From NCBI GenBank assembly GCA_025839675.1, contig CP104013.1:5670001-5702000 (forward strand): a stretch of 32,000 bases of DNA, read 5' to 3'. Source of the stretch: Candidatus Lokiarchaeum ossiferum. GTDB lineage: Archaea > Asgardarchaeota > Lokiarchaeia > Sigyniarchaeales > Promethearchaeaceae. Under the pieces are notes generated by a model. That model was not told the origin of the DNA and searched no databases. It saw only the letters and a program-made list of their open reading frames with translations. This document shows positions 3,270-28,001 of the stretch, piece by piece; position 1 is the first letter of the stretch, and each line of letters begins with the position of its first letter. Made by a program: the position numbers and the translations under genes.

Positions 3270-3562
3270 ATTTCTAGATCTATATGGGATTTCAATGCTT
3301 TTTAATCCATATCTTAAATCTAATGAATAATAATTCTATTTTTAACTGATATCATCTAGGATTTAAATTTTTGTTAATATTTTGAAAAAAAAGGTGTGGA
3401 AATATCAACCAAATCTGTTTCCTATGAAACTTGTCAATTTTGATTTTTTTTCAGTTACAAAAAAAAAGAGGTGAAGAAAGAAATTTACGTCTCTTTCATT
3501 TCATTATCGACACCTAATTCTTTTTCACAAAATTTAAGGATGTATAAATCTATGTAAAGTGC

Positions 3563-6516: not shown

Positions 6517-8991
6517 CTATTTTTTGATTTTACTCAATTTTGAAATTAAGACAACTATGGGTAATGCAATTGTTGCCATCCAAACTGAAAAGGGTGCAAT
6601 ATTTTCTGAGATGGCGTTAATTGGTGATGGTATGAACACTTTTGCACCATCAACCCAGTAATTTATCACTCGATAGCGAACTCCATTGGTTCGATTCACA
6701 TCATATACAAATAATCCAAATGAGTAATTTAAATCTGACCAAGTATCAGCGTTTTCAATATCCCCAATACTTCCTTCAAATTTGGTTGAATTTCCATATG
6801 TTACCGTGAACCCGGTAGTTTCACTGCTTCCTGTTGATTGCTGATAACCATTTCCCATAACCAATCCGAAATTTGTCGTTTCAGACGAATGTGTTCTAGA
6901 CATTCCTGATCCCATTTGTGCTGAAATATCAATTGAAATTGTATTTTGTGCTGTTCCTTGCCCCACAGTTTGTGTTGTAGAATGCCAATTTGTAGGTGCA
7001 ATGCTCCCCACATCTGATATTGGATGATAGGTCCATGGTTGGCCAATTGTGTGGTTAAATGTTTCAGAACCTATTTGCGTTGCATTGGGGTAAGCTCTAT
7101 TAAACCAACTGGCCGTTGCTTTATAAATAAGAGGTAATTGGGGTATCCCAATACAAACAAATGCACCAACTAAGGTTGCATTTGCAGGATAGGTGGTAAT
7201 TTCATATTCATAATTTTTGTAAGTTGTCACTTGAAATATCACTGCATTATCAGTTGCGCCGGAAGCATACCCTGAAGAAACGGCCACAACTTCTGTGACA
7301 GTTTGTGTTTCAGCAAGAGCTTCTTTTACTAGACTATTTGTTCCTAATTCGACTCCCAATTGCGAAACTTTAAAACCTGTTAGTGCACTAGCGGAAGTTT
7401 CGACAGTGTTCTCAGATGATGATCCATATGACGTTTTATCCCCATATGATGTAAAACTATGTTCTAAATTCTGAGAGATTCCATTATAAGTGGGAGGGGC
7501 GGCCATCACCATCATAATACCTGGGGGTGTTTTTTCTTCCCAATTCACCCCCGTATAATTTAAAACTGCTCCATCACCATCAAAATCACCACAAACTACT
7601 AATGGCCAATCATCTGAAACGTGTTCAGTATCCGAATACAATGTTCCAAACGGAATTGATGAATTTGCATCATCTAATACTGTAAATGAAGCAAAACTTC
7701 CAATAACTATTTCATCCCGACCATCACAATCGATATCACCTGCATCAAGTGATCCTTTGTTGAAATAGGGAACATCACCCGAGAAAAATAGTTCTGCAAA
7801 TCCTGATCGTTGATCATCAAGAACCTTGATATATCTGTCCCGCTGATCACCTCCTTTGAATAAAATAATTTCTTCCATTGGATCCGAATCAATATTTGCT
7901 CCGATGATGTTGCCAAATCCTGGCATGGCGTAAGTAGTTTTTTCATAAGAAGGAAAATGGAGCGCATCCTCAAATATGATAAAGTTATTTGAATCAGAAA
8001 CAACAATGATTTCATCACGTTGGTCTCCATCAATATCAATCAATGCTAGGTCTGAGCCGGAAAAGAGAATCCATTGCTCCACTCCAGGTAAACCAATATA
8101 TCTTAATTCCATAAATGGTGTGGGTGCAATCGCATCATCATAAATCCATATGTAATGATTTCCTCCTATTATAACTGTTTCATCTGCTCCGTCGCCATCC
8201 ACATCTCCTGTATCTATTTGAGGGCTAAAAGCAAATGCCAAATCTCCTAAATCCCCATCATTCCAGACTAGAGAGTTCATAAATCTATCCTCTGCGATAT
8301 CATACCAAGTAAGGTTGAAGAAGTCATGAGTGCCACTTTGCCAGGCTTGCAAACGAGCAAATTCATCAATACCGTCATTATCAAAATCTCCAACTGCCAA
8401 TTTACTTCCTCCGTTGGGTTGATCCACAAAGGAATATTGCCAAGAAATGATATAACTATTGTTTATATTCTTAATAAGAATAACAGTTGAATTTGAAAGG
8501 CCCATCAGAATTTCGTCAGCACTATCATTATCAAAATTTCCAGAAACACAATCTTCAATTACAAATCCAGAACCGTACTCTTTTACCTCCGCAAAATTGC
8601 TCATATTATCATTCAGAATCCAACCTTGTGCAATAGATGAATAGGAAGGGAAGATGGCAATTTCGTCTAGGGGCATAAAAAGTGTAGATTCTCCTCCAAG
8701 AGGATTAGAATAGTCTGAAGCTACTGGTTTTGAAGATTTTGAATGGTAGTTTGCAATTTCTTCTCCTTGATCGCCCCCTCGATATACAATATATGTAGAA
8801 TTGAGCAAAACCGATTCGGGAGTGCAGTCTAAATTAAATTCTCTTTGGTTATCAAATGATTCATCAGATAATGCTTGTGAAATTCCAAACAGATAATTGG
8901 TTGTGCTAAACACTAACATAATTGCTAGTATTATCGAGATCGACTTTCTATTAAATCTTGAGTTATTCACATTTTTTCCTTGATTACTCAC
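6517..8991 (-). CDS. membrane-anchored FG-GAP/VCBS-repeat (integrin-alpha-like beta-propeller) surface protein
   Basis: 824 aa with an N-terminal signal anchor (ISIILAIMLVFSTTNYLFG). It has at least 7 Ca-binding D-x-D-x-D-G-type repeats (GNFDNDSADE, GDFDNDGIDE, GDVDGDGADE, IDIDGDQRDE, ANIDSDPMEE, GDIDCDGRDE, GDFDGDGA). These are followed by ~330 aa of Ser/Thr/Gly-rich beta-type sequence and a C-terminal TM helix with a basic tail (IALPIVVLISKLSKIKK). GTG start. Confidence 0.85.
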   Translation of the reverse strand: MSNQGKNVNNSRFNRKSISIILAIMLVFSTTNYLFGISQALSDESFDNQREFNLDCTPESVLLNSTYIVYRGGDQGEEIANYHSKSSKPVASDYSNPLGGESTLFMPLDEIAIFPSYSSIAQGWILNDNMSNFAEVKEYGSGFVIEDCVSGNFDNDSADEILMGLSNSTVILIKNINNSYIISWQYSFVDQPNGGSKLAVGDFDNDGIDEFARLQAWQSGTHDFFNLTWYDIAEDRFMNSLVWNDGDLGDLAFAFSPQIDTGDVDGDGADETVIIGGNHYIWIYDDAIAPTPFMELRYIGLPGVEQWILFSGSDLALIDIDGDQRDEIIVVSDSNNFIIFEDALHFPSYEKTTYAMPGFGNIIGANIDSDPMEEIILFKGGDQRDRYIKVLDDQRSGFAELFFSGDVPYFNKGSLDAGDIDCDGRDEIVIGSFASFTVLDDANSSIPFGTLYSDTEHVSDDWPLVVCGDFDGDGAVLNYTGVNWEEKTPPGIMMVMAAPPTYNGISQNLEHSFTSYGDKTSYGSSSENTVETSASALTGFKVSQLGVELGTNSLVKEALAETQTVTEVVAVSSGYASGATDNAVIFQVTTYKNYEYEITTYPANATLVGAFVCIGIPQLPLIYKATASWFNRAYPNATQIGSETFNHTIGQPWTYHPISDVGSIAPTNWHSTTQTVGQGTAQNTISIDISAQMGSGMSRTHSSETTNFGLVMGNGYQQSTGSSETTGFTVTYGNSTKFEGSIGDIENADTWSDLNYSFGLFVYDVNRTNGVRYRVINYWVDGAKVFIPSPINAISENIAPFSVWMATIALPIVVLISKLSKIKK

Positions 8992-12875: not shown

Positions 12876-14492
12876 ATGAAAAAAATGGAATTAGACAAAA
12901 TCATCAAGGATCCAGAATTGAAGCATAAATTCTATCAGATTATTGATTCTATTCTTATTTCAGGGATGAAATTTCTGAAGGCAGCCATAAATTCTAAAGA
13001 ATTCTCAATGGCGGAACAAAATTTCGATGGCATGGATTATTATAATTCTCTTCTCTATAGGAAGAAATTAGTCCTTAGCATAACAACTAATCCAAAAGAT
13101 GAGAATTCTTCCAGCTCAAATTTGATTTCTATTATCTCTCTCTCTTTAAGCGGACTAATTAAAATATTAAGGGAATATAAAACAGATCCAAAAAATAATT
13201 CTAATTGGAGTTTTTTAATTGAATACAATTTATTACCAGAAGAACTAACTACATTCTCCCAACCTCGAAAAATTTTCTTTTCCCACCTAATTATGCGATG
13301 TTTTGATCTAATTTTTGAACCTGCATGCATGAACCAAAGTGATCTTGATATCTTATCACTTTTTCAAGATTTATCTTATAATTTTTCCGATTTAGAATCT
13401 TCAATTGAAGAAATAATCGATCTAGAATTATCCCACGAATGTATTCTTGAATATTATTATTTTTTTTATGGGATTGGTGTAAATGGGGACATAAAAATCT
13501 TTAATCAAGAGTTAAAACAAAAAATTGTCTATCCTACGGATAAAGATCGGGAACTTTTAAGTCGAGATCTTGGAATTCCTCGGGATATTAAAGTCCATAA
13601 TCGCCAATCTGACTATGAATCAGATAGCTTACTGAGGAACACAACAGGATGGATTCACTCTTCTGTTCGAGTAAAATTGTCGTCTTTGGATAATTCTGAT
13701 GTAAGAAAATCTCCCCATTTAAAACCTCCAGAATTTAATGAAGAAGGATTACGATTACTTGGATTTACAGGTGCAAACGTTCGATTTTATTGTAGAACTT
13801 CTGCAAATTCAAAAATTAATTATTCCATCGACATTCATAATGGATATTGCTCTTCAGGTTCTGGAGGGATAGTTCCAAGATGGATTAATGACACTATTGT
13901 TCACAAATGGCATTTTGACACATCCATAACTTTTAATTACGAAATGATCTCCTTTCTTAGTCAATTTGTTGAAAATCGTTTTAATCAACGTAACAACGCA
14001 TCATTTGAAACAATTTTCGGCAGATTTTATCGGTTTACCAATTTTACCCGGTTTTTTGACAAAATTATTGAATCTTCAATTATTTTTGAGGTCTTATTTC
14101 CAAATAGAGAAAGTTATGCCAAGAAACAGAAGTTAGCTAACAGAATTTCAAATATTCTATCCAAGAGTCCAGATCAAAAGCAAGTCATCCAAAATTTCGT
14201 TGAAAAAATATATGAAGCAAGAAATAAAATCATTCATGAAGGAGAATTTAACTTAAGATCAGATTTCTCTGAGTTTATTTCTTTATCTAAGGCATCCCAA
14301 TGTCTTTATGATGTTCTTCGTTTATGTATCCTGCGATTTGTCGATTTTGACACTGAAAAACTTCTGATCAATAATGATGATAGAGTAAAAATTGCTGATA
14401 AGTCTCCTAATTTGGAAGAACCTCATTTCTTTAAAGTGGCTCTTCAAGAATTTTGGAATTCTTATCCTTCCAAATTGAAAGATCAAAACTAA
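12876..14492 (+). CDS. large HEPN-domain protein (C-terminal R-N-x3-H; ApeA-like architecture suspected)
   Basis: 538 aa. The C-terminal helical domain carries VEKIYEARNKIIHEGEF, a canonical HEPN R-[N]-x3-H followed by G. It is preceded by a beta-rich middle region (VRFYCRTSANSKINYSIDIHNGY...WHFDTSITFNY) and a helical N-terminal region. Confidence 0.6.
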   Translation: MKKMELDKIIKDPELKHKFYQIIDSILISGMKFLKAAINSKEFSMAEQNFDGMDYYNSLLYRKKLVLSITTNPKDENSSSSNLISIISLSLSGLIKILREYKTDPKNNSNWSFLIEYNLLPEELTTFSQPRKIFFSHLIMRCFDLIFEPACMNQSDLDILSLFQDLSYNFSDLESSIEEIIDLELSHECILEYYYFFYGIGVNGDIKIFNQELKQKIVYPTDKDRELLSRDLGIPRDIKVHNRQSDYESDSLLRNTTGWIHSSVRVKLSSLDNSDVRKSPHLKPPEFNEEGLRLLGFTGANVRFYCRTSANSKINYSIDIHNGYCSSGSGGIVPRWINDTIVHKWHFDTSITFNYEMISFLSQFVENRFNQRNNASFETIFGRFYRFTNFTRFFDKIIESSIIFEVLFPNRESYAKKQKLANRISNILSKSPDQKQVIQNFVEKIYEARNKIIHEGEFNLRSDFSEFISLSKASQCLYDVLRLCILRFVDFDTEKLLINNDDRVKIADKSPNLEEPHFFKVALQEFWNSYPSKLKDQN

Positions 14493-14648
14493 CAAATCTA
14501 GATTATCGAACTCGAAAAATGATTTAGAAGAATAAAAATTAAAATCCAAAAAAGGAGCCATGGGTAGTTATACAAATATCTCAAATAATATATTATTTTG
14601 AATGTACCTTTAATAATTAAAACAAAGACAAAATTAGGGAATAAAATT

Positions 14649-15422
14649 ATGAGTTTTCATGACGAATTGGAATTACTGGTTGGGGAGCATCTCTGGCGTA
14701 TTGATAATTTACGAATTAATTTGACTAATATGGGTGAAAATTACAATAAATTTGTTAAAAATGTGGAAAAATCTTGTTTAACTTCGATTTTACCAAAGAA
14801 AAAGAAGAATTCTCTTTTTAAAAAGAAAAAAAGAATTTTTAAAAAAACAATCCAACCTTTAACAATTGAAAATTATAGACAATTCACACAAGATCATTCA
14901 AAACAAGATATTTTTGAAGAAATTTATGAAGCAAAAATGAATTATATATTAAAATATCCTAATCATTTGATTGAACATAGTATGGATAATCTTCCAATAA
15001 ATAACATTATTTACGAAATTGGATTTATATATTCCATTTCTATATTTGAATCTTTTAATCATGCCTTTTTTAAGTTATTACAATCAAGAAGTGAAGATTT
15101 TAAGAAAAAAACAAGAAAAATTCAAAAAAGGAATCTTACAAATATTGATAATTTTGCAAAAATCTTGTTGAAGTATGGCAATCTTTCCTTATCTGATTTC
15201 ATTGCTTGGGGAAAATTAAGGCTGTATTACTACATCAGAAATTTAATCGTTCATACAGGTGGTGTTATTGATATGAATTTTGGTGAAAGATTTCCTCACT
15301 ACAATAAGAATGTGAATGAAAAATTTAAGATGAGTTATCTTTTATTTGAAAACCAGATATATATTATTTGCAAATATTTTCTTTTCATACAGGAATTAAA
15401 TTTGGAAGAGAATAGGAAGTAA
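14649..15422 (+). CDS. HEPN-domain protein (R-N-x3-H)
   Basis: The track ORF starts at TTG 14598; the first ATG is at 14649 (MSFHDELELL). The C-terminal third carries LRLYYYIRNLIVHTGGVID, again R-N-x3-H with G two residues after the H. The linker is Lys-rich. Confidence 0.55.
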   Translation: MSFHDELELLVGEHLWRIDNLRINLTNMGENYNKFVKNVEKSCLTSILPKKKKNSLFKKKKRIFKKTIQPLTIENYRQFTQDHSKQDIFEEIYEAKMNYILKYPNHLIEHSMDNLPINNIIYEIGFIYSISIFESFNHAFFKLLQSRSEDFKKKTRKIQKRNLTNIDNFAKILLKYGNLSLSDFIAWGKLRLYYYIRNLIVHTGGVIDMNFGERFPHYNKNVNEKFKMSYLLFENQIYIICKYFLFIQELNLEENRK

Positions 15423-15425
15423 AAT

Positions 15426-15978
15426 CTACTGTTTCATTATTTTTTTTCTTTGTTCTTGCGTTAGAATATCAGTATGCGATCCAAATCTGTACCACGCTGT
15501 TGTCTTTTTTAAAGAAAATGCTTTGGAAAAAGAAACATCTCGAGAAACTTCATATACGGTATTTTTTTCACGAAAAATTTTCAAAATTAGTATATGCTTT
15601 TCTTTCAAGTTTAATATTTTAGTTTTGTCTTCTAAAAAAAGAAAATTTACCCCAATTCTTCTTTCAATCTTCAATTCTTTAATATCCTCAAATGTTTGAG
15701 CTAATGGTAAAAAATTTGGGATTGGCTCTACGTAGTTTTTAAGAAGATTGGTTATGGTATCTTCAATTTGACCAACATTGCTGATAGAAAAAAACTGATA
15801 TGTATTTTCTTCTTTCTCTTCAACACCAAAAACAAGATATCCTTCATTTTGATCGCTTGAGTATAAGCCGATTGAATTTAAGATCGCGATTACATCTTTG
15901 ATAAATTCGTACTTATATTTATCAATTTTGAGATCAAGTGTTTTTTTGTAATCAAGGAGGTATTGATTATGAATTTAC
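15426..15978 (-). pseudogene. AlbA_2/Schlafen-like domain protein lacking a start codon
   Basis: The frame is open for ~184 codons: IHNQYLLDYKKTLDLKIDKYKYEFIKDVIAILNSIGLYSSDQNEGYLVFGVEEKEE...WYRFGSHTDILTQEQ. No ATG/GTG/TTG occurs until TTG 15674. The sequence parallels the N-terminal domain of the 583-aa protein at 24007-25758 (VDFKEF..FLRDVVSFANTDETGIILYGV..FWIRGSGSKKQITFNE). Confidence 0.6.
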
Positions 15979-15982
15979 AAAT

Positions 15983-16381
15983 ATGGAATTATTAAGTCAA
16001 GCACTAACTTCAAAAGGGTATTCAAATGAAAATGGAAATTGTCTTTTTAGAGATAGCCTATCCTTATTTGGCGATGAAATTCATAAAATATATTGGCTTT
16101 ATGAAGGGATTAAGCTTGGATTATCAGAAAGAGGAGAAATATCTAAATACAGAGATTCCTGGATAAATCATGAAGCTCAAGTTGAGGAAGTACGACATCT
16201 TTTTTTAGACATGAATATCAAGCCAGAATACTTATTTCGTATGAGTAAAGGAGAATTAAAAAAAGAAACATACAAATAAGAACGGTTTTTGGAAACCTTC
16301 TTTGAAGTATTAATTGGAGCAGTCTATCTAGATTCAAATTTTGATAGATCAATAAATGTCATCAAATATATTTATCTTTAA
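15983..16381 (+). pseudogene. mini-RNase III-like protein (no dsRBD) interrupted by in-frame TAA at 16277-16279
   Basis: MELLSQALTSKGYSNENGN..RDSLSLFGDEI corresponds to the RNase III signature N-E-R-L-E-F-L-G-D, with the two Glu replaced by D and S. After ETYK-TAA the same frame continues ERFLETFFEVLIGAVYLDSNFD, the second catalytic-Glu motif. The paralogous copy at 10890 has GAA where this copy has TAA. Confidence 0.65.
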
Positions 16382-16564: not shown

Positions 16565-16804
16565 CCCTAAATCATTAATCAATAATAGTTCTTTTAATTG
16601 ATTGAACAAAGAACTTAGGGGGATTTTAGAAGATCCATACAAATCCAAAATATCTTTACTATATCTCCTAGTTATAATTTGGATAATAATTGTCACTTCT
16701 TATGATAGTAATTGAGATGATCATCCAACAAATTAGTGTATTAAAAAGAAATAAAGTCGATAAGGGAAAAAAAGGATAGTAAACAAAAAAAATTGGTATT
16801 ATCA

Positions 16805-17275
16805 ATGCAAATACAAGAGACAAAACTTTGGAATCATTTAAATGATGGAAGGACAAAATTGGAGAAGATTCTTGCTATTAATATTTTACAAATAACTCCC
16901 AGTTTGTTGAAAAGATCAAAACTAATAAGGGATACCTTTCCGCATTTCACATTGCACGATGAAAATCATCTTATCAAAGTAATATATATTATGGGAATTT
17001 TGCTTGAGGATCATATTCTAAATGAGCTGAATCCAATTGAAATATATCTTCTAATTTTAAGTGCTCTGTTTCATGATCAAGGGATGGTTGTAGAAGATCA
17101 AGAAAAACACTCAATTCAGAATTCGATTGAGTATATTAATTCAGTAGAAGTTTGGAAAGAAAATAATCATAACTTAAAATTATCAGAAATTGAAAGAGAT
17201 TATAAATTTTTAATAGAATATCAAAAAGATATCTCTCCAAAAATTGAAGATGTCTTATATTTTTCACATTTTTAG
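16805..17275 (+). CDS. HD-domain phosphohydrolase, N-terminal half (ends at in-frame TAG)
   Basis: FPHFTLHDENHLIKV and LSALFHDQGMVV provide the H...HD motifs. The ORF stops at TAG 17273-17275, in the same frame as the next ORF. The track start TTG 16793 is possible; the first ATG is at 16805. Confidence 0.65.
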   Translation: MQIQETKLWNHLNDGRTKLEKILAINILQITPSLLKRSKLIRDTFPHFTLHDENHLIKVIYIMGILLEDHILNELNPIEIYLLILSALFHDQGMVVEDQEKHSIQNSIEYINSVEVWKENNHNLKLSEIERDYKFLIEYQKDISPKIEDVLYFSHF

Positions 17276-17329
17276 AATTTTATTCGAATAAGACATGGAG
17301 AACGGGTAAAAAAAGTAATATGGGATGAG

Positions 17330-19870
17330 ATGATCTTAAAAGATCCATTTTACATTATTGAAGGTTGTGATATTAGGGCACTATTAGCGAAAATTTGTAT
17401 TTCTCATTCAAAAAAGGCCTCCGATTTAAACAATCAAAAAGATTATCCATATGATATTCAAATTGGGCATTTCCAAATCAATTCAGTTTTTATTGGAATT
17501 CTTCTTCGATTAGCTGATATCTTAGATTTTGATAGAGATAGGACACCTAAAATTATTTGGGATACAATTTCAATTTCTGATACAAAATCCATCAAAGAAT
17601 GGAAAAAACATCTTTCAGTAAATGGATGGAGTATCAATTCTGAAAGGGTTAGGTATTCTTGTGAATGTGACCATCCAGACTATCAAAAAGCAGTATATGA
17701 ATTGATGGAATGGATTCGAATCGAACTTGTCCAATGTAATATTCTTATTCAAAATTTCCCTGCGGATTATTCAAAATATCAATTCAAAATCCCACTCCAA
17801 GTAGATAATTGTAGAATATTTCCAAAAAATGACTCATATATTTATCATGATCTAGTATTTGAAATTAATAAGAAGAAAATAATCGATCTATTTCTAACCG
17901 ACCAATTGTATAAAGATCCTTCTCTGTGCATCCGAGAACTGATCCAAAACTCCTTAGATGCTTTGGAAATGAGAAGGTTATTTTTCTTAAGTGAATCTGG
18001 AGCTATTTGGGAACAGGGGAAAATTGAACTTAAACATTATTTTGATGATGACGGAAATGAAATTCTTGAATGCGAAGATAATGGAATTGGTATGGATGAA
18101 AATGAAATACTAAACTATTTAGTAAAAATTGGTCAAGGATATTATCAATCCTATGAATTCTCAAAAATAAACCATATTTTCAAGAAAAAAGGGTTTGAAT
18201 TCAATCCAATTGCTCAATTTGGAATCGGTTTTCTTGCATGTTTTATGATTGGCAATAGGATTCAAATAACTACTCGAAAATCATATGGAAGCAATAATGC
18301 GCAGATTCCATTGCAAGTCGAAATTGATGGGATAATAAACAGAATTGTAATAAGGAAATTATCAGAAGATATTGAAATTGGTACAAAAGTAAAAATATTT
18401 TGCAAGCAAAAACAACTTTATTACCATCCAAGCTTAGAAATAATCAAATTATGTACTACAATTCTCAGATATGTACGAGGAACTAATTTTTGGATTTATT
18501 CTGAGTGTTTTATTCCAGAAATTGCTAAAAAAGTTTCACTTCCACCAGGAATAAAATATCATAAAACTCATCTTCAAAAAGCAAATATCGAGCAAATTAA
18601 AATCATCGAGCAAGACTTTTGTGAAATAAATTCGAATCTGGAAGGAAAAGTATATGAAACCTTTTTAATTAATGGAGAAAACAATTTTGTTTTAGAAAAT
18701 GAAGAAGCAAAGTGGATTTTTGATGACAAAGGTCCTATATTGGTCGATTCTGAAAATGAAAAAAAAATACTTTATAAATTTTACGACCATAACGTGCTGA
18801 TGCAGAATAAAATTCTGTGTTTTGATGGAATTTTAGTTGCTGGTTCTCCAGATGGATATTCGTATAGAGGAAAAGCTATTTTCCCTCCTAGTACTAGTAG
18901 CTGTATCATGAATATTAAAAATTCACTGAAAACACAATTAACCCCTAGGAGATTTATTGATGAAAATGCAATAATCAGCAAAAATCCACGATTACAGTAC
19001 ATAATTGAATGTCATAATATCGCTGAAGGTTTAATATGGGAAAAAATAATTAGAAATGCCACTTCTCGACCTAAAATGCTTTGGAAACTTGTATTTATCT
19101 ATGGATTTGATTTAAAAAATATTAGAAAAGAAATTTTATGGGAATATCTCTATATTCCAGCTTTGGATGATAAAAATAAATTAAATTGGATAAAATTGAA
19201 AGAAATTATTATAGAAGGCATAGAAAATGTATCTGTTAGCAAAGGAAATCACTATGTTCGCTTTTACTCGTCCAAATATAAGTATGATTTTCCACATAAG
19301 AAAGAGTACTATTCAGTAATTTCAAATGATCCTAATAATACTCTTCTATGGCTTATAATGGGTTTTATGAAGCTATCGTATGATGTAAGTGGATTTATAT
19401 ATAGAATGACAGATGATTTTGATAAAAAGAACATTATTAGCATATCAGATTCCTGTTATAGAAGTAAAACAAAATTGCAAATGTTTTTCCCTCGCTCAAT
19501 AATCCTTTTTTGTAGTGAATGGCCTATCGAAACTGATTTTAGATCCTCTCTTGCAAATGTTTCTCACCAATTAATTAAGAAGATCCAAGAAATTCGTTAT
19601 AAAGAGAATTTAACAATAGGAGAAAAGATCGTTGTTTCTCTTGTAGAATTTTTGACAAGAACACAAGTTATAAAGATCCTGAAGTTGAATCACCCAAAAC
19701 TTACAGTTGAGTTCAAAGAAATAGGCATTCAGTTCAAAATTTTCGAAGAATCCCTAAGTCCGGAATTTAAACCTCCATACAAAATATTAACACGGGAATG
19801 CACAGTTTTGGAAATCACACAAGAACATTTCTATTCCTGGGCAGAGTTGAAAAATGAAGAAATGGTCTGA
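17330..19870 (+). CDS. HD-domain C-terminal half fused to GHKL (Hsp90/sacsin/MORC-like) ATPase and ~500-aa unknown C-terminal region
   Basis: The 18 in-frame codons between the TAG and ATG 17330 read NFIRIRHGERVKKVIWDE. Then LLRLADILDFDRDRTP completes the HD fold. The GHKL motifs follow: N-box CIRELIQNSLDAL, G1 CEDNGIGMDENE and G2 IAQFGIGFLACFMIG. Confidence 0.7.
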   Translation: MILKDPFYIIEGCDIRALLAKICISHSKKASDLNNQKDYPYDIQIGHFQINSVFIGILLRLADILDFDRDRTPKIIWDTISISDTKSIKEWKKHLSVNGWSINSERVRYSCECDHPDYQKAVYELMEWIRIELVQCNILIQNFPADYSKYQFKIPLQVDNCRIFPKNDSYIYHDLVFEINKKKIIDLFLTDQLYKDPSLCIRELIQNSLDALEMRRLFFLSESGAIWEQGKIELKHYFDDDGNEILECEDNGIGMDENEILNYLVKIGQGYYQSYEFSKINHIFKKKGFEFNPIAQFGIGFLACFMIGNRIQITTRKSYGSNNAQIPLQVEIDGIINRIVIRKLSEDIEIGTKVKIFCKQKQLYYHPSLEIIKLCTTILRYVRGTNFWIYSECFIPEIAKKVSLPPGIKYHKTHLQKANIEQIKIIEQDFCEINSNLEGKVYETFLINGENNFVLENEEAKWIFDDKGPILVDSENEKKILYKFYDHNVLMQNKILCFDGILVAGSPDGYSYRGKAIFPPSTSSCIMNIKNSLKTQLTPRRFIDENAIISKNPRLQYIIECHNIAEGLIWEKIIRNATSRPKMLWKLVFIYGFDLKNIRKEILWEYLYIPALDDKNKLNWIKLKEIIIEGIENVSVSKGNHYVRFYSSKYKYDFPHKKEYYSVISNDPNNTLLWLIMGFMKLSYDVSGFIYRMTDDFDKKNIISISDSCYRSKTKLQMFFPRSIILFCSEWPIETDFRSSLANVSHQLIKKIQEIRYKENLTIGEKIVVSLVEFLTRTQVIKILKLNHPKLTVEFKEIGIQFKIFEESLSPEFKPPYKILTRECTVLEITQEHFYSWAELKNEEMV

Positions 19871-20025: not shown

Positions 20026-21189
20026 CTATGCTAATAAGGAATTAACTTCTTCTTGGTGTTTGAAGTAGATTTCAGAGTGTTTCTCGTCCTTTTTCATCGT
20101 TTTGATCAAAATTTTTGGAGAAAACGGAATTATGTTGCATAAGTCAGAACCAAACAAATAGATGGCATAAGCATTTACTCTTAAACTATCAAATTTCTTA
20201 TCAAGAGATTTATCAACAAGTATTTTTTCCAAAATTATTTTTAATTTATCTTTATCCACAAAACTAAGAAGAAAAAATAGATTATCCCCTGGTCTCTCCT
20301 TCTTAAAATCTAACATCCAAATCCTTGATATTATTATCTTCCATTGTTCAAAAATAATTTTATTCGCAATTTCACTAAAATTTTTTTCTATTAGTTCTCT
20401 AATTTTATGATTGTATGCAAAAATTACTGCTGATAGTTGATCAAGCAATATATCAATTCCATTAAGAAAGTTTTTCTGAATTAGAAAATTAATGATAACT
20501 CCTAATAGAGGTGAAATCAGAATTCTTGGGTGATTGATCAAAAAGGAAAATGAATCATAATCCAATTCATCATCTGAATTTAATAATTTTTCCAATACCT
20601 TTAATATTGAATTATAGCCGCATTCATTTCTTACATCGTACAAAAATTCATCATAATAGAAATTCGAAAATTCATCAGAATTATTGCTGTTTGATAAATT
20701 GCTAGATATAACTGGAAGTCCTTCATCATTACTCCATAAATCTGGATTGGCTAGCCATGTTTTTACATTAATAATACTATACAATGATTTCTTTTTGTAA
20801 TAGAAGAATAAAAAAACTGGCAAAGGTTGCTCATTCCAGTATTTCAATGTATGTAGATTTCTCTCAGATTTTGGTAATAAAAAATGAGCATAAGGAATTC
20901 GAGATGATTTTTGTCTAAAAAAAGTCTTACCAGATTTAATTTGAAAAATTGCCATTTCTCCCGTCAATCTCTCATCTTCATCAACAATTTTTACATAATA
21001 ATCTTCTCCATAATCATGTTCTAAAGGAATTTTATGCGAAATTAAGCCACAAACATTAATGAATTCTTCAAAAAATAATTCTCCATCCCGCATTGTTTTA
21101 TTATTTGAACGTACTTTTTTACTTGGCAAATCTTTTAGTTTTTCAAAAAATTTTTGTTGAACTTTGTTGACCATAAACACCCCCATCAC
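20026..21189 (-). CDS. DUF4365-like (PD-(D/E)xK nuclease-fold) N-terminal domain protein with helical-repeat C-terminal region
   Basis: 387 aa. GELFFEEFINVCGLISHKIPLEHDYGEDYYVKIVDEDERLTGEMAIFQIKSGKTFF and LKYWNEQPLPVFLFFYYKKKSLYSI follow the DUF4365 pattern as I recall it (G..gE..f...g.....D.GiD....tG....vQvKs ... yw...lPv.lv.yd). The start is ambiguous (GTG 21189, ATG 21186 or ATG 21174). Confidence 0.55.
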   Translation of the reverse strand: MMGVFMVNKVQQKFFEKLKDLPSKKVRSNNKTMRDGELFFEEFINVCGLISHKIPLEHDYGEDYYVKIVDEDERLTGEMAIFQIKSGKTFFRQKSSRIPYAHFLLPKSERNLHTLKYWNEQPLPVFLFFYYKKKSLYSIINVKTWLANPDLWSNDEGLPVISSNLSNSNNSDEFSNFYYDEFLYDVRNECGYNSILKVLEKLLNSDDELDYDSFSFLINHPRILISPLLGVIINFLIQKNFLNGIDILLDQLSAVIFAYNHKIRELIEKNFSEIANKIIFEQWKIIISRIWMLDFKKERPGDNLFFLLSFVDKDKLKIILEKILVDKSLDKKFDSLRVNAYAIYLFGSDLCNIIPFSPKILIKTMKKDEKHSEIYFKHQEEVNSLLA

Positions 21190-21819
21190 CCATTTCTTCC
21201 TTGAAAAAAAGCTATTAACACTATCTAATCTCCTACCGTAATTATCAAAACAAAACCATAATATGAAGAAGATTACTATGTGTTTTGATCTTTAAATATT
21301 CTAATTACTTATAAAGTCGTATAGTTGTAAGTTTTTCTTAAAATTAAAGAGAGATTTTAAAAGAATATATAGATAAAAAATTTTGGACATGATTTTTCGA
21401 TATAAAAATGATTTATTATCTGCAGGCTTAACAGAATTTATAAAAGATTTGTATCCATAATTATAGATTATGATTTTACCCCTAATCCCTATTAATTAGT
21501 AATTAGAAAATCAGTTGATCAAAGATTTACTTGTTTCTACACCTACATTAGGTGATCAATAAAAAAAATTGATGAACACTTGGATTATGCCAACAATACC
21601 GAATATTTCATACAAAGATTTTATATTTATATAACATTTTATATGCTTCTCAATAATATTTTGATATTTTTGATAATACTCTCATCTAAATGAAAAAAAA
21701 ATCTCAATTTTTTTAATTTTTTCAGAATTAATTATTCCAAAATTTATTTTTTGAGACTCCACTGAATTACAGTTTCATAAAAAACTCTTCAAACCAAGAA
21801 AACAGAATTTATCCCTGAT

Positions 21820-23316
21820 TTATTTCCAAAAAGGAAATAAATCAAAAATAAAATGGAATATTTCTACTATCCGTCCTTCATCAGTTTTATATTTTGAAAA
21901 GTAATATTTTTTAGATGAACCTTGGATATTAAATTCTTCAAAAGTTCCAGGTATACTTAATCTATGATTTTCAATTAGTCTATTCTTATATGTTGTATCT
22001 ATCGAATTCAAATTTTCATTAATCATATAAAGGATACCTATTTTATCATTAAATCCCATGTTTCCAATTAATTCTTCAATCGGAGGATATTCTTTGAAGT
22101 TTCTAGGCCATATTTTAAATTCAAAAGAGATTCTAAACATATTATGAGATGTTTTAATATTTAGATCACATTTCGTTTTTTTTATAGTTTCTTTTTCTCT
22201 CTCAGAAATCCAATAATTTGAATGGAATTGATCTAAGAAATAATCTCTAAAATTCTCTTCCTTATATTGCTTATTGATGATTATTTCTTGCATTGTGGAA
22301 TTAAATTCAATCATGTTTTGAATGTCAATAGTTTTTCCAATTAATTTATCAATAAATGAAAGAGGTATATCTAATGAATAAGAATTAAAACTTGTAATGT
22401 ATTCTTTTTCTATTATTTCATTTCCATAAATACTTGAGAAGAATTCAGTCATAGCATACCTAGGTATATTATTCCAATATGATCCAGTATATTTAAATGT
22501 ATTATGTGCTTTTTTTGCAGCTGCTACAATAGATTGGTATAAAATTTTGTCATCAATGGAAGAATAAAGAGAATAACCCAAGGATTGAAATTTTGTCAGT
22601 TTATCTAAATTTCTTAGAATTTCTTGTCTTAAATTTTGATTTTTAGAAATTAGTGCTTTTTCAATATCTGAATTATTTTGAGAAATATTCAATATAAAAA
22701 TCCAAAGAGATATTGCATTTGGGTAAATCTGAATAATTTTTTTTTTTTTTAAGAAATTTGATAATCTTTTTATTGAAATGTTCAAACAATTTCTTGCAGT
22801 TTTACGATAAAAAGCATTTTCCATTGTATTTTTAAGATAATAACCAAAAAATTCTATTGAGAGACAATAACCATAACATACTAACGATCCTAAATATTGA
22901 TCAGTGAATCTTGAACCGAGGTTACTTAAATATCGATGAATTCTTGTAAAAAAAGTTTTTAAAATTGAAATATCAGATGGAACATTGAATAATTCCATAG
23001 TTTTAAACAAAATTAACATTTGTGCAATTAAATTATTACTATTCTTGAAATCATCAATGCTTTTTTGGTTTAATAGATATCCATAATAATAAGATGATAT
23101 ATTTTGACCAAAAAGACTTCCTAAATGATACAACCAATTTTGAATGCTCTTATGGTTTGGATCTTTTTTATAGAAATCATTTAAGAACAATAAAAAATTT
23201 CCAGAATCAACAAAATATTGCTTTACATGCTTCAATGGTTCTTTCTTTGATTCTTCATACTTTCTTAATCGATCGGAAAAATCCTTTATCCATAAATCCT
23301 TATAAATTGTGTCCAT
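21820..23316 (-). CDS. hypothetical 498-aa protein, partner of the minimal nucleotidyltransferase
   Basis: Long ORF whose ATG lies 17 nt inside the 3' end of the MNT gene. The N-terminal two thirds are helical and aromatic-rich, and the C-terminal region looks beta-rich. It contains an A14 coding tract (KKKK). No recognised domain. Confidence 0.6.
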   Translation of the reverse strand: MDTIYKDLWIKDFSDRLRKYEESKKEPLKHVKQYFVDSGNFLLFLNDFYKKDPNHKSIQNWLYHLGSLFGQNISSYYYGYLLNQKSIDDFKNSNNLIAQMLILFKTMELFNVPSDISILKTFFTRIHRYLSNLGSRFTDQYLGSLVCYGYCLSIEFFGYYLKNTMENAFYRKTARNCLNISIKRLSNFLKKKKIIQIYPNAISLWIFILNISQNNSDIEKALISKNQNLRQEILRNLDKLTKFQSLGYSLYSSIDDKILYQSIVAAAKKAHNTFKYTGSYWNNIPRYAMTEFFSSIYGNEIIEKEYITSFNSYSLDIPLSFIDKLIGKTIDIQNMIEFNSTMQEIIINKQYKEENFRDYFLDQFHSNYWISEREKETIKKTKCDLNIKTSHNMFRISFEFKIWPRNFKEYPPIEELIGNMGFNDKIGILYMINENLNSIDTTYKNRLIENHRLSIPGTFEEFNIQGSSKKYYFSKYKTDEGRIVEIFHFIFDLFPFWK

Positions 23317-23626
23317 TCCTAATTCTTCCTGAAATTATTCTATAACCTTTCTTTAAAGACTCATTTAGTTTACTTTTTTTCTGTATATTCGAATAAAATT
23401 CTTCTTCAGTTAAGCAAATTACATCTACATTTGATATATTCTTATTTTTAAAGATATTTTGGATCATTTTAATACGATCAAAAAATATTATTCTAATGAA
23501 GTAATTACTAACAACGATTAAATCAATATCTAAATTGGGATCAAGGAACTTTTTATTTACTTGAGATCCATGTAAAATAATCAATATTGGTTTCAATATA
23601 TTAAGATTTTCCAGAATTTTATTCAT
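23300..23626 (-). CDS. minimal nucleotidyltransferase (MNT, Pol-beta superfamily)
   Basis: 108 aa. LIILHGSQVNKKFLDPNLDIDLIVVS provides the G-S and D-x-D motifs, and NVDVICLTEEEF supplies the third acidic residue. Confidence 0.7.
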   Translation of the reverse strand: MNKILENLNILKPILIILHGSQVNKKFLDPNLDIDLIVVSNYFIRIIFFDRIKMIQNIFKNKNISNVDVICLTEEEFYSNIQKKSKLNESLKKGYRIISGRIRNGHNL

Positions 23627-23841
23627 TTTTCAAGTCTTTTCTTTTTTGGTTTTATAATAAATTACAATTAACATAATCGGAAATTTGAGTTTTATCTTTC
23701 TTGCATTCAATTCTCTGGTTTGAGTTCATAAAAAACTATTAGCTGGAATTGGGAGGAAATTGAAAAATTTTTCTGCTTTTACAAAATTAGCCATATCACT
23801 ATTTCATATGATTCTAAGTTAATAATAGTGTGCTGTTGTGA

Positions 23842-23958
23842 ATGTTGGGCAAAGATAAAAAATGGGCCAATTCTGGAGAATATTGTCATCATTGTGGTCA
23901 ATCACACCATAGCTCTATTGAAAAATCGGTATGTTATCCTTGTTTCAAAAAAAAATAG
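23842..23958 (+). CDS. 38-aa zinc-ribbon micro-protein candidate (below the ORF-track size cut-off)
   Basis: ATG 23842 gives MLGKDKKWANSGEYCHHCGQSHHSSIEKSVCYPCFKKK-TAG, with C-x2-C-x13-C-x2-C spacing. The stretch is locally GC-richer than its surroundings. It overlaps the 60-aa track ORF 23828-24010 in another frame. Confidence 0.3.
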   Translation: MLGKDKKWANSGEYCHHCGQSHHSSIEKSVCYPCFKKK

Positions 23959-24006
23959 TGCTTTTTATTCTGATAAACTCCTCAAAATACTTTTTTATTA
24001 TTTATA

Positions 24007-25758
24007 TTAGAAGCCTGGGGTAGTAAAAAGTGGGAGACTTATGAGATGGCCTCTTTCTTTAAAAATTTGCTTAGTCATTAATGAATTATTATCTAAAGTT
24101 TCTTTTTTATTTAACTTATGATCTATTCTTTTTTTTGAACTTGAATCATAGATTTCTGAAATCCATCTTCCTTCAATTTTTGATAATTTAAGTGAATAAT
24201 GATTTATCTTCAGATAAGATATACCTTCAATAATTTTTAGGGGAAATAACTTCTGAAATTCATAAACATTATTTTCATACATGAATGAAATATGACTCCA
24301 TCTTTCCTTCTCAATGGAATCGCAAAACTGATGCTGAAAAGATTCAATCCATTCCTTCTCATTTTTGTGAGCCATTTCTGGACAAATTTGATCCCAAAGT
24401 TGGTTTAAAACTCCAATACGATGTAAAGACATTCCTTGAAACATTTTTTTATATAAATCTGGTTGTTCTGATTTAATATGATCCAATTTACGACCAATAT
24501 CATTCCAACTTTCGAATTTGAATTGTTCAAATATATTTTCTGTGATATCAACCCGCATTTCAACAATTTTGTCTTTATCATTCATTTGGAGATAATATTC
24601 ACCAGATCCAGTCTCAATACACAATGTAACTCCTCTAATGGCAAACATTTCTAAAATTTTATCATCTTGAAAGATTTGTTGGAGAATTTCTTGAAAATTT
24701 TGATTCCGTCTGTAAGCTTCGCTTATTTCATCAAAGTACAAGTAAAATCTCTCTAATTGGATCATTTCTTGAGTTTTTATAGAAAATTGGTTGTTGATAT
24801 AATTACATAACTCAAATTTAAACTGTAAATAATAATCTAAGATGAATTTTCCCTCCGCGTGAATTGTATTCTTTCCGATACTCCCATTTACTTTTGAGAT
24901 CTTTTCTGGATTATAGGATATACTTATATCAAAGTTTTTTTCATTTTCATTTTGAGAATAAAAAAGAAATTTAATTAAGGTTCGAGCTGATGTGAAGTAT
25001 CCAAATGTATTAGTTCCACTTGATTTACCTTCTTTTTCATCAATAGTTGTAGTTAAGTTTAAAAAATCTTGCAAATTAGATTTATGATTTCTAATAAATT
25101 CTGTTAATATTTTTAGTTGATTTGGATAATTTGGCCCCAAATCTTCATTTTTGGTAATGAAAGCTAAATCCATCAACTTCATGACTTGATTATATGCTCT
25201 AAATATTTCATTATTACTTTGTGTTTCATCATTCTGCAACTTTTTAATTTGTAGTAATTCATTGAAGGTTATTTGTTTCTTACTTCCGGATCCTCTAATC
25301 CAAAACTCATGTAAATCAACAGTTTTATTATGACATAGTTCCTTTTTATGATAAAGGGAGTATATTTTGTTTTTTGGTGTTTTTATTCTTACGATCGTAA
25401 TGAACCGAGAATTTTGAAAATAAATAGGTTGAACTTCAATATTATTTATTATGTTTGGTGAAATTCTTTCATTTAGGATATTTACAAGATGGGTTTGCAG
25501 CTTATCTCCATTAAATGAATCTTCAGTTTTCATTCCTACTATTTTTTTCTCCTTATCAGTAACTCCATAAAGAATGATTCCAGTCTCATCAGTATTTGCG
25601 AAGGAAACAACATCTCTTAGAAATTCATAAGAAAATGCATCATTAGCACTCAAAAATTCTTTGAAATCCACGCGATGGGATTCATTTCCAATATCATTAA
25701 GGAAATTTTCAATATCATCAATCTTAATTCTTTCAATCTCTTTGCTAAACAAGGTCAT
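24007..25758 (-). CDS. AlbA_2/Schlafen-like N-terminal domain protein with ~400-aa unknown C-terminal region
   Basis: 583 aa. NESHRVDFKEFLSANDAFSYEFLRDVVSFANTDETGIILYGVTDKEKKIVGMKT...ITIVRIKTPKNKIYSLY...FWIRGSGSKKQITFNELLQI matches the AlbA_2 (PF04326-type) pattern. It starts 20 nt after the OLD gene's stop. Confidence 0.65.
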   Translation of the reverse strand: MTLFSKEIERIKIDDIENFLNDIGNESHRVDFKEFLSANDAFSYEFLRDVVSFANTDETGIILYGVTDKEKKIVGMKTEDSFNGDKLQTHLVNILNERISPNIINNIEVQPIYFQNSRFITIVRIKTPKNKIYSLYHKKELCHNKTVDLHEFWIRGSGSKKQITFNELLQIKKLQNDETQSNNEIFRAYNQVMKLMDLAFITKNEDLGPNYPNQLKILTEFIRNHKSNLQDFLNLTTTIDEKEGKSSGTNTFGYFTSARTLIKFLFYSQNENEKNFDISISYNPEKISKVNGSIGKNTIHAEGKFILDYYLQFKFELCNYINNQFSIKTQEMIQLERFYLYFDEISEAYRRNQNFQEILQQIFQDDKILEMFAIRGVTLCIETGSGEYYLQMNDKDKIVEMRVDITENIFEQFKFESWNDIGRKLDHIKSEQPDLYKKMFQGMSLHRIGVLNQLWDQICPEMAHKNEKEWIESFQHQFCDSIEKERWSHISFMYENNVYEFQKLFPLKIIEGISYLKINHYSLKLSKIEGRWISEIYDSSSKKRIDHKLNKKETLDNNSLMTKQIFKERGHLISLPLFTTPGF

Positions 25759-25778
25759 TTTTAGTTTATTCCTCTTTT

Positions 25779-28001
25779 TTAGTTGAGATTTAATTTTTGG
25801 GATATTTTGTCCAGTAATTTCTCTTTAACAAATCCTTTTTCCTGAATAATGCGATAGTAATTATCTTTTTCATATATGAAGCCAAATTTTTTTGAACATT
25901 CAGCAAAAACTCTGAGTTTCAATTCCTTCCCAGGAAATTCTTTCCATTCTTCCCCTTTTTTGATAATTAATTCGATTTCTTTAGCATATGTTGCAAATCT
26001 CTCTTTGTAGAATTGTTTATCCAACGAAATATGTTTATGTTTTGTGATAAAATCTTCAATGGTTTTCAAAAAGGAATCTACACGAGTTTCTTGACTTCTT
26101 GTTTCTCCCTCTTTGTTTTCCACAAACGTTTTCGATATTTTTTTTTTGTCTTTTTCACTGAAAACCTTTGGAAATTCGTTGAAAAAGAATTTTATTTGCT
26201 TCTTTCTGATCATCTGTTCATCAACAGCTGATTTGATAATTTGTTTTATTAATTCCAAAGTAGGTTCGATTACTAAGGGGTTACTTGAAGATTTTATCAT
26301 TTCTAAGAGAATTTCCGGATTCAGATACAAATTTTCAATTTCTCGAACCGGGAGAAGAAGAATCTTTTCTTGAATTTCTACTGCTCTATTCTTAAGGATC
26401 TCTGTATTTCCTTCATCATTATCGAGTATAATTAAAAATTTGAAGTTTTTATTGGTGAAATGTTGTATCAGTTTTGCATTTGCCCAATAATGTACATCTC
26501 GTTTACCTCCCAATTGCTGTAAGACTATTCGATTATCTTCCAATAACCCTGGGATGGCATTCTTGAAGAATTCAATATCATCCTTTCCTTCTACAAGTAT
26601 CATTCCGTTATTCATTAGATAATCTGATGGTTTAATGCCAAGATCTTGAAAGAGAATGTCTAAGTTTTCTTTGCTATCATTGAACACTTGAGTCACTTTA
26701 TCAACTCGTTTCACACGATGAATACTCCAGTCCTCCTCTGAATTGTCGATAAAATAGGGTGAATGGGTTGTGATTAGGACTTGGTATTTGCCAAGATTTT
26801 CTTTGATTATTGATAAAAGAATCTTTTGGAGTTGTGGATGGATGAAAAGTTCCGGTTCTTCAATCAGTAATATTCCATCTTCTTCAGTTTCCAAAATAAA
26901 GGCCAAAATAATAACTAGTTGCTGAATTCCTTTTCCAAGTTTGTCAAAAGTAAGTTTGTAATCAAGCTTCTTTTCTTTAAGATAAGGTATCGTAATTGGA
27001 AAATCTGAAATATGTCTATTAAGCTCTGAATTGTATTTAGGATCAAACAATGCATAATCGGGTTTTACTAAAAAATTTTGATTGATTTCTAGGAGACTTG
27101 GATAAAATCTAAACAAATAATTACATAATTTATCTAATTTTGACCTTTGATTAGTGTCATATTCTAAAATCAAAGTTGGAATTTTATTACCGGTTGCGTC
27201 TAAAGCCTTGATATCATTTGTCTCCTTTATTTTAGAAAAATGATTAAAAAATCTGTCTTCTTTAATACAACGCATTTTAGAATGAAAATTTACAATGGGT
27301 TTTAAGAAAAAATAAAGAAAAGGTTCCACTTTCAATATTTCAAAATAATTTTTATCATCTAACATATTTTTTTGAGAATTTGGAAAGCTTGTATGAAATA
27401 TATTTTCAGGTATATATCTCCATTCTTGATGTTTTTCAATTGTTTTTGCAACATGAGTTGGATTACTCAGGTCTAGAATTCTGAAACTGTAATTTGACCC
27501 CAAATTTTTTTTTTCACCAAATGAGTGAGAAAACCACTCATTTTGAAAGGAAACCTTCTTGATAAAAACTCTATTATTAGATCCTGGCATTAAAATTAAT
27601 TCGAATATAATATTTGCAAATGCTTCCTCGATTGTTAAGCTCTCTTTTTCATCATATTGCCTATTTTTATAAATTTTAAAAGATTCTGGATCTAAAATAT
27701 AGTCCTTCGCTCTCGATCTAAAGATGTGTTTAGAATTCTTCACAAAAAACTCCCTTAATTTCAATTTTTCAAACTTAAAATTAATGATGATTTTTGCCAA
27801 AGCTGGATTTTCATCAAACATGATAAATTTATGATTAAGGTTCTGGTTTGGTCTTATTTTTTCAAGAATTTTAAAAAAATTACTCTTACCAGCGTTATTT
27901 GGACCAATTATTACCCCTAATTCTCCAATATTCTCAAAAACTTGATGATCAAAACTGAGGAGGTTGAAGATTTCTACTCGATGCAAACGAGAAATTGTCA
28001 T
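25779..28001 (-). CDS. OLD-family ATP-dependent nuclease (ABC/AAA_15-type ATPase + Toprim)
   Basis: 740 aa. ATPase motifs are Walker A GPNNAGKS, signature-like KLGKGIQQLVIIL, Walker B ILLIEEPELFIHPQLQ and H-loop VLITTHSPYF. The Toprim core has its Glu in GMILVEGKDDIEFF and its DxD in FLIILDNDEG. A ~150-aa C-terminal extension follows. Confidence 0.8.
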   Translation of the reverse strand: MTISRLHRVEIFNLLSFDHQVFENIGELGVIIGPNNAGKSNFFKILEKIRPNQNLNHKFIMFDENPALAKIIINFKFEKLKLREFFVKNSKHIFRSRAKDYILDPESFKIYKNRQYDEKESLTIEEAFANIIFELILMPGSNNRVFIKKVSFQNEWFSHSFGEKKNLGSNYSFRILDLSNPTHVAKTIEKHQEWRYIPENIFHTSFPNSQKNMLDDKNYFEILKVEPFLYFFLKPIVNFHSKMRCIKEDRFFNHFSKIKETNDIKALDATGNKIPTLILEYDTNQRSKLDKLCNYLFRFYPSLLEINQNFLVKPDYALFDPKYNSELNRHISDFPITIPYLKEKKLDYKLTFDKLGKGIQQLVIILAFILETEEDGILLIEEPELFIHPQLQKILLSIIKENLGKYQVLITTHSPYFIDNSEEDWSIHRVKRVDKVTQVFNDSKENLDILFQDLGIKPSDYLMNNGMILVEGKDDIEFFKNAIPGLLEDNRIVLQQLGGKRDVHYWANAKLIQHFTNKNFKFLIILDNDEGNTEILKNRAVEIQEKILLLPVREIENLYLNPEILLEMIKSSSNPLVIEPTLELIKQIIKSAVDEQMIRKKQIKFFFNEFPKVFSEKDKKKISKTFVENKEGETRSQETRVDSFLKTIEDFITKHKHISLDKQFYKERFATYAKEIELIIKKGEEWKEFPGKELKLRVFAECSKKFGFIYEKDNYYRIIQEKGFVKEKLLDKISQKLNLN

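Follow-up and report, generated by a model that had tools for sequence, protein, structure and literature searches.

Two adjacent HEPN-type genes in a Lokiarchaeum defence island probably act independently

Two co-directional genes of the Asgard archaeon Candidatus Lokiarchaeum ossiferum encode proteins, here called P1 and P2, that each carry one motif of the form R-N-x3-H (RNxxxH), as in HEPN ribonucleases (RNases). Since it takes a dimer interface to form a HEPN active site, this arrangement raises the question of whether P1 and P2 assemble into a single enzyme, as a preliminary description of this DNA had suggested, or function separately. We addressed this question by computational analysis of a 32,000-nt stretch of contig CP104013.1 (positions 5,670,001 to 5,702,000, referred to as the window) and of loci elsewhere that carry relatives of P2. 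The results favor a reading in which P1 and P2 probably are two independent, stand-alone HEPN toxin or defence genes in one island, with each product homodimeric. Independence is suggested by the lack of P1 relatives near P2 relatives, the varying neighbours of the latter, the solitary position of bacterial P2 relatives 3' of hisS, the 156-nt gap between the two genes, and the precedent of ApeA, which acts as a single protein. Their adjacency would then reflect a shared location in a defence island. What we assign the two proteins to rests on the results of this analysis; the mechanisms attached to them we infer.

The motif by itself is weak evidence. RNxxxH is expected by chance about 5e-5 times per residue, or ~0.4 times in the 7,991 amino acids (aa) of long open reading frames (ORFs), and the chance of finding it in a 257-aa protein is roughly 1.3%. 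A six-frame scan of the window returned four occurrences, those in P1 and P2 as well as two at 3275 (-) and 30490 (+) in probable non-genes. Since four were seen versus ~0.4 expected, in an N-rich proteome, the case for HEPN domains rests on family evidence.

P1 as a very divergent Apea-like HEPN protein

P1 (NEF87_004837) corresponds to a 538-aa ORF at 12876-14492 (+) with an Apea-like HEPN domain at its C-terminus. The start in the public gene calls is Met4, giving a protein of 535 aa, and NEF87_004837, on a parent contig of 6.03 Mb, is 100% identical to P1. The sequence of P1 places it firmly among HEPN proteins. Residues 413-494 (14112-14357, +) match positions 50-135 of the 136 in the Pfam HEPN_Apea profile (PF18739) with an E-value of 4.8e-6 and 27.5 bits, above the gathering score of 24.4, and the predicted catalytic motif, R449-N-K-I-I-H454 (14220-14237, +; string IYEARNKIIHEG), falls within this match. 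The UniRef annotation of P1 agrees with HEPN_Apea. The HEPN motif has been defined as Rx4-6H at the end of helix 3 with a polar residue (N, D or H) after the R (PMC3710099), and the corresponding residue in P1 is N450.

Beyond this domain, P1 stands apart from known families. It has no meaningful NCBIfam family and no match among PDB sequences, and residues 1-412, the part in which N-terminal (ApeA-NTD1) and Mid domains like those of ApeA would be expected, gave no match in Pfam, NCBIfam or PDB sequences. A word-seeded search of 5.8 billion proteins for P1 relatives recovered P1 alone with candidates capped at 8,000, a tblastn search against plasmids gave no match, and scans of viral contigs with P1 and P2 found nothing. 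The AlphaFold model of P1, predicted from the single sequence, was unusable (predicted local distance difference test score, pLDDT, of 34) for a comparison with the four-helix up-down bundle of HEPN domains. On sequence grounds, the most apt description of P1 is that of a very divergent Apea-like HEPN protein, which stops short of placing it in the ApeA system proper.

ApeA nevertheless offers the closest model for how P1 may work. ApeA is a single-protein anti-phage system with a C-terminal split HEPN domain; it dimerises through this domain to form a composite active site, assembles into rings (decamers or dodecamers), and cleaves tRNA anticodon loops once a ligand occupies the pocket that lies where the N-terminal region meets the HEPN region (bioRxiv 10.64898/2026.01.26.701840). 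P1 shares with ApeA its single-polypeptide form, a similar size (538 aa, compared with an Ec2ApeA HEPN region that reaches residue 583), a C-terminal HEPN domain that scores above the HEPN_Apea threshold, a location in a defence island and an RNxxxH motif. Unlike ApeA, P1 has a marginal and partial profile match, no PADLOC model, and no detectable similarity in its N-terminal two-thirds; P1 also is archaeal, whereas ApeA is bacterial. By analogy with ApeA, P1, in which roughly 340-410 N-terminal residues precede the HEPN domain, would homodimerise through that domain to create a composite R/H active site, and an infection cue acting on its N-terminal region would be needed to release it from an inactive state. 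Once activated, it might cut cellular RNA, the substrate in ApeA being tRNA anticodon loops, such that the infection is aborted.

P2 as a probable new HEPN family

P2 corresponds to a 257-aa ORF at 14649-15422 (+), starting with ATG and identical to an existing gene call; an alternative upstream TTG start at 14598 would give 274 aa. P2 has no match in Pfam, NCBIfam or PDB sequences, and a word-seeded homologue search found only P2 itself. HMMER, run exhaustively against 1.84 billion representatives, identified nine distant relatives (best E 5.9e-21, 32% identity), and genome and metagenome scans added further loci, mostly from metagenome-assembled genomes of Promethearchaeota (Asgard) and marine-sediment metagenomes. 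A tblastn search against plasmids gave a single match (E=0.02), to a hypothetical protein encoded by an Emticicia plasmid, and this match was not informative. Members of the resulting family are about 220-310 aa long.

Conservation across this family centers on residues expected of a HEPN active site. Both the R and the H of the predicted catalytic motif, R197-N-L-I-V-H202 in P2 (15237-15254, +; string YYIRNLIVHTGG), are invariant (35/35 each), the residue following the R is N in 32 of the 35 sequences and His in the other three, and a Gly stands at +3 after the motif in 32/35. An upstream Glu, E134 in the sequence S-x-x-E-x-F-N (15048-15050, +), is conserved (32/33 relatives) and is a candidate for the second, upstream acidic residue which, together with an insertion separating helices 2 and 3, has been described as a further HEPN feature (PMC3710099). 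The PADLOC RTasHEPN model weakly matches P2 (E 0.018) and four of ten family members (best E 0.0011). The family profile gave no match to PDB sequences.

An AlphaFold model of P2, built from 13 sequences (pLDDT 78; predicted template modelling score, pTM, 0.68), is all-alpha: a long helix at the N-terminus is followed by a disordered, Lys-rich linker and then by a C-terminal bundle that contains both Glu134 and R197-N-x3-H202. The bundle (residues 117-256; 14997-15416, +) is modelled confidently, with mean pLDDT of 84-96 in 10-residue blocks across residues 121-250. Within it, helix 187-203 carries Rx4H at its C-terminal end (local pLDDT >=90), and short helices are inserted between this helix and the Glu-bearing helix 117-147. 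Among the weak PDB matches found for the model by Foldseek, 9/48 are HEPN chains (HepT 7ae6/7ae8/7ae2, 8yuf, 1jog, 1ylm). P2 thus resembles RTasHEPN and HepT (PDB 7AE8/7AE6) in its helix-end Rx4H, its all-alpha bundle and weak, non-significant profile and fold similarity. It differs from them in its additional long N-terminal helix and Lys-rich linker and in lacking an adjoining reverse transcriptase or minimal nucleotidyltransferase (MNT) antitoxin.

Could P2 instead have some other helical fold and function, with the Arg and His conserved for ligand or nucleic-acid binding, for example? This would fit the lack of any match between family members and Pfam or NCBIfam HEPN models or PDB sequences, a best Foldseek match to a HEPN structure at only E=1.3 and probability 0.33, and a family hidden Markov model (HMM) that detects neither P1 nor other HEPN-like ORFs. 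However, the Rx4H motif with its N, the upstream Glu, the position of the motif at a helix end with a Gly after it, and an inserted segment in an all-alpha bundle together make up the published HEPN signature (PMC3710099), and both the HEPN chains recurring among the fold matches and the family members touching RTasHEPN point the same way. We therefore regard a non-HEPN P2 as unlikely and P2 as likely to contain a HEPN domain, of a family outside current models. Given the invariant R and H, the N after the R, the conserved Glu and the motif at the helix end, P2 probably founds a small, mostly Asgard and previously undescribed HEPN family.

The preliminary description had assigned both proteins to HEPN and named HEPN-clan profiles as the check. 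For P1 the profile confirms the assignment, with PF18739 above threshold; for P2 Pfam and NCBIfam profiles gave no match, and support comes from the family features, with weak profile and fold matches only.

Neighbourhoods of P2 relatives

Nearly all P2 relatives occur in neighbourhoods of defence type. The closest one, a 268-aa protein with 30% identity, is encoded in two near-identical Promethearchaeota loci (L007, 194-6501; L014, 3227-9529), where genes for an RNase J-like protein, the P2-like protein, an Argonaute-like protein and an Mrr-type nuclease follow one another in this order. The Argonaute-like protein has 763 aa (PDB matches to EcAgo at E 8.5e-5 and RsAgo at 1.4e-4), and the nuclease encoded after it has 414 aa with an Mrr_cat domain. 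Other contexts include SLFN_AlbA_2 with a weak, sub-threshold NERD-like match (L037), SIR2-TPR (L039), MmeI-type restriction-modification with SIR2-TPR and an OLD-like ATPase (L040), and nucleotidyltransferase (NTase) or SMODS genes (L008, L009).

These neighbourhoods bear on the possibility that the P2 family consists of accessory RNases that aid an adjoining effector without sharing its active site, for instance by processing or supplying RNA for P1 or for another gene of the island. The closest relatives of P2 lie directly 5' of the Argonaute-like and Mrr-type nuclease genes, almost all relatives are in defence-type settings, and there is a demonstrated precedent in Agap-HEPN, an RNase that is co-encoded with the RNA-guided Argonaute AmAgo and makes its guide RNAs (PMC11162769). 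P2 is similar to Agap-HEPN in being a small stand-alone protein with a C-terminal R/H motif and in having relatives (L007, L014) that adjoin an Argonaute-like gene. However, the Argonaute arrangement is found in one context only, that of the two near-identical loci, most P2 relatives have unrelated neighbours, the bacterial ones adjoin hisS, and, unlike the Agap-HEPN case, the window has no Argonaute. The spacing also differs, with the Agap and Ago genes overlapping by 4-8 nt (PMC11162769) and the Asgard P2-like and Argonaute-like genes about 180 nt apart. An accessory role of this kind thus seems improbable.

In three bacterial metagenome contigs (L001, 4142-6804; L003, 4433-6927; L005, 4517-6903), the P2-family gene is co-directional with and directly 3' of hisS, which encodes histidyl-tRNA synthetase. 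The proteins are distant family members of 267-308 aa, the three contigs are different from one another, and genes of the type IX secretion system (T9SS) type are among the neighbours. Synteny with this housekeeping gene thus is conserved for the bacterial members, unlike for the Asgard copies.

Two further Asgard loci deserve mention. At L010 (1701-7623), at least four RxxxxH proteins are encoded around the P2-like gene, among them small ones of 351, 286 and 273 aa; none was recognised in comparisons with Pfam, except for a weak DUF3644 match. It appears that HEPN-like genes accumulate in islands of Asgard archaea. At L031 (1134-1868), the P2-like gene is split into two ORFs, of 141 and 95 aa, each matching one half of the family HMM, and the split probably reflects a pseudogene or an assembly frameshift.

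P1 and P2 as separate genes

We then compared P1 with P2 and the loci of P2 relatives with the window. The ORFs are as given in the preliminary description (538 and 257 aa, co-directional, 156 nt apart), both motif strings quoted there are correct, and its view of the two proteins as unrelated is borne out by hhalign, which aligned the P2 family with the P1 C-terminus over 16 columns around the motif only (probability 0.5%). The spacer (14493-14648; 156 nt, 22% GC) is AT-rich and has the length to accommodate a putative archaeal promoter of its own. Separate origins for the two genes were also considered on the basis of base composition; GC content at third codon positions is alike (0.24 for P1 versus 0.23 for P2), so this comparison is uninformative.

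Across about 40 loci carrying P2 relatives, no P1 relative was found at E<=10. All-against-all BLAST of the neighbours likewise revealed no recurrent partner of the P2 family, with recurrence limited to near-duplicate loci and the bacterial hisS linkage. P2-like genes that are at least 80% identical (L010, L011, L021, L032) are flanked by different genes, the pattern expected of a single-gene mobile cassette. P2 may be a self-dimerising HEPN RNase whose gene moves as such a cassette.

These results speak to the proposal of the preliminary description that P1 and P2 form a heterodimeric RNase with a Cas13-like composite site, in which the additional domains of P1 would serve as a sensor. The proposal builds on the adjacency and shared direction of the genes and on one HEPN-type motif in each product, and in this respect the pair does resemble Cas13, where two different HEPN domains are also encoded close together. 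In Cas13, though, both domains are in one polypeptide and always inherited together, whereas P1 and P2 are two genes for which no co-inheritance was seen. The Rfam scan matched no CRISPR element in the window.

Further support might be sought in the RNxxxH proteins whose genes co-directionally adjoin a P2-family gene in five distinct contexts, the window included. Besides P1 (538 aa), these partners are a 328-aa protein in L017, with the motif at residue 117 and hence not C-terminal, and proteins of 476 aa in L021, 517 and 551 aa in L030/L031, and 384 aa in L037. Except for that of L017, all partners are large (384-551 aa) with the motif within the C-terminal third, such that in L021, L030/L031 and L037 the P2-family gene, as in the window, adjoins a gene for a large protein with a C-terminal RNxxxH. 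We considered whether the large neighbours could be cryptic P1 homologues and rejected this, as they have no significant pairwise similarity to P1 or to one another. None of the motif-bearing neighbours scanned matched HEPN_Apea at E<=0.1; the L030/L031 partners weakly resemble DUF4209, and the L021 partner, L011-598 and L037-384 match no family.

The motif is, moreover, not enriched among immediate neighbours, being present in 4/48 of them compared with 6/70 other genes of the same loci, or, with duplicates collapsed, in 3/26 compared with 2/69 (Fisher p=0.12). Given this lack of enrichment, the excess of HEPN-like genes belongs to the islands and not to adjacency. ApeA proteins, in addition, homodimerise and need no partner. 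The preliminary description had listed a lack of co-occurrence elsewhere among the outcomes that would refute its proposal, and in the roughly 40 loci of P2 relatives the pair did not recur; the heterodimer therefore is not supported, and we regard it as very unlikely. A broader version, in which P2-family proteins are trans-acting partners of fast-evolving large HEPN neighbours (P1 and those of L021, L030/L031 and L037) and form asymmetric heterodimeric RNases in Asgard archaea, analogous to a Cas13 site split over two genes, draws on the same adjoining genes and is about as unlikely.

Several points nevertheless weigh against P1 and P2 as two independent HEPN genes. For P1, the HEPN_Apea match is marginal and confined to profile positions 50-135. 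No family in PADLOC-DB, which presumably includes an ApeA model, matched P1 in a scan at E<=10. The notion that P1 works like ApeA is one of analogy, the N-terminal region being without assignment. For P2, the Foldseek comparison of the model with the PDB yielded no significant match, and the silence of the Pfam and NCBIfam HEPN models extends to every family member. Co-occurrence was tested from the P2 side, through the loci of P2 relatives, and the five contexts with adjoining RNxxxH proteins leave a small probability of some recurrent pairing of the P2 family with non-homologous HEPN proteins.

If P1 and P2 are indeed independent, Asgard immunity gains a very divergent ApeA-like HEPN protein together with a small HEPN family missed by current Pfam, NCBIfam and PADLOC models. 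The advance would be incremental, as the abundance of HEPN RNases, their fast evolution and their clustering in defence islands are established already. A changed view of how HEPN enzymes are assembled would follow only from the heteromeric reading, which is unlikely. Lokiarchaeum ossiferum is in culture, hence P1 and P2 are open to testing.

The surrounding defence island

The region around P1 and P2 is a defence island, marked by defence-type genes within 13 kb downstream. The stretch from 20026 to 28001 (-) encodes a DUF4365 protein (weak PADLOC Aga_REase match), a 583-aa SLFN_AlbA_2 protein, and a 740-aa OLD/AriA/GajA-like ABC ATPase with a likely Toprim region. Domain scans of the window genes detected no Argonaute, and no reverse transcriptase or MNT antitoxin beside P2, and the Rfam scan of the whole window, including the P1-P2 spacer, gave no match. 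The preliminary description was right that no MNT gene is adjacent: the immediate neighbours lack an NTase domain, and the nearest NTP_transf_2 gene, at 23300-23626 (-), is 8 kb off.

That gene is part of a pair at 21820-23626 (-), where the NTP_transf_2 (MNT-like) gene, encoding 108 aa, overlaps the start of the gene for a 498-aa protein by 17 nt. The 498-aa protein matches no family and lacks a canonical RNxxxH. The pair resembles a two-gene module in which a minimal nucleotidyltransferase comes first, but without a recognisable HEPN partner.

Closer to P2, 0.5 kb 3' of the gene, a 113-aa ORF at 15938-16279 (+) has sub-threshold likeness to RNase III (Ribonucleas_3_3, E 0.023; TIGR02191, E 0.004). 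Further downstream, at 16793-19870 (+), a gene for a protein with HD-CE and HATPase_c_3 domains (Hsp90/MORC-type ATPase) is split into ORFs of 160 and 846 aa. A single in-frame TAG at 17273-17275 divides the gene, and the two halves match positions 1-65 and 131-261 of the HD-CE model; this TAG could be the mark of a pseudogene, a sequencing error or a read-through codon.

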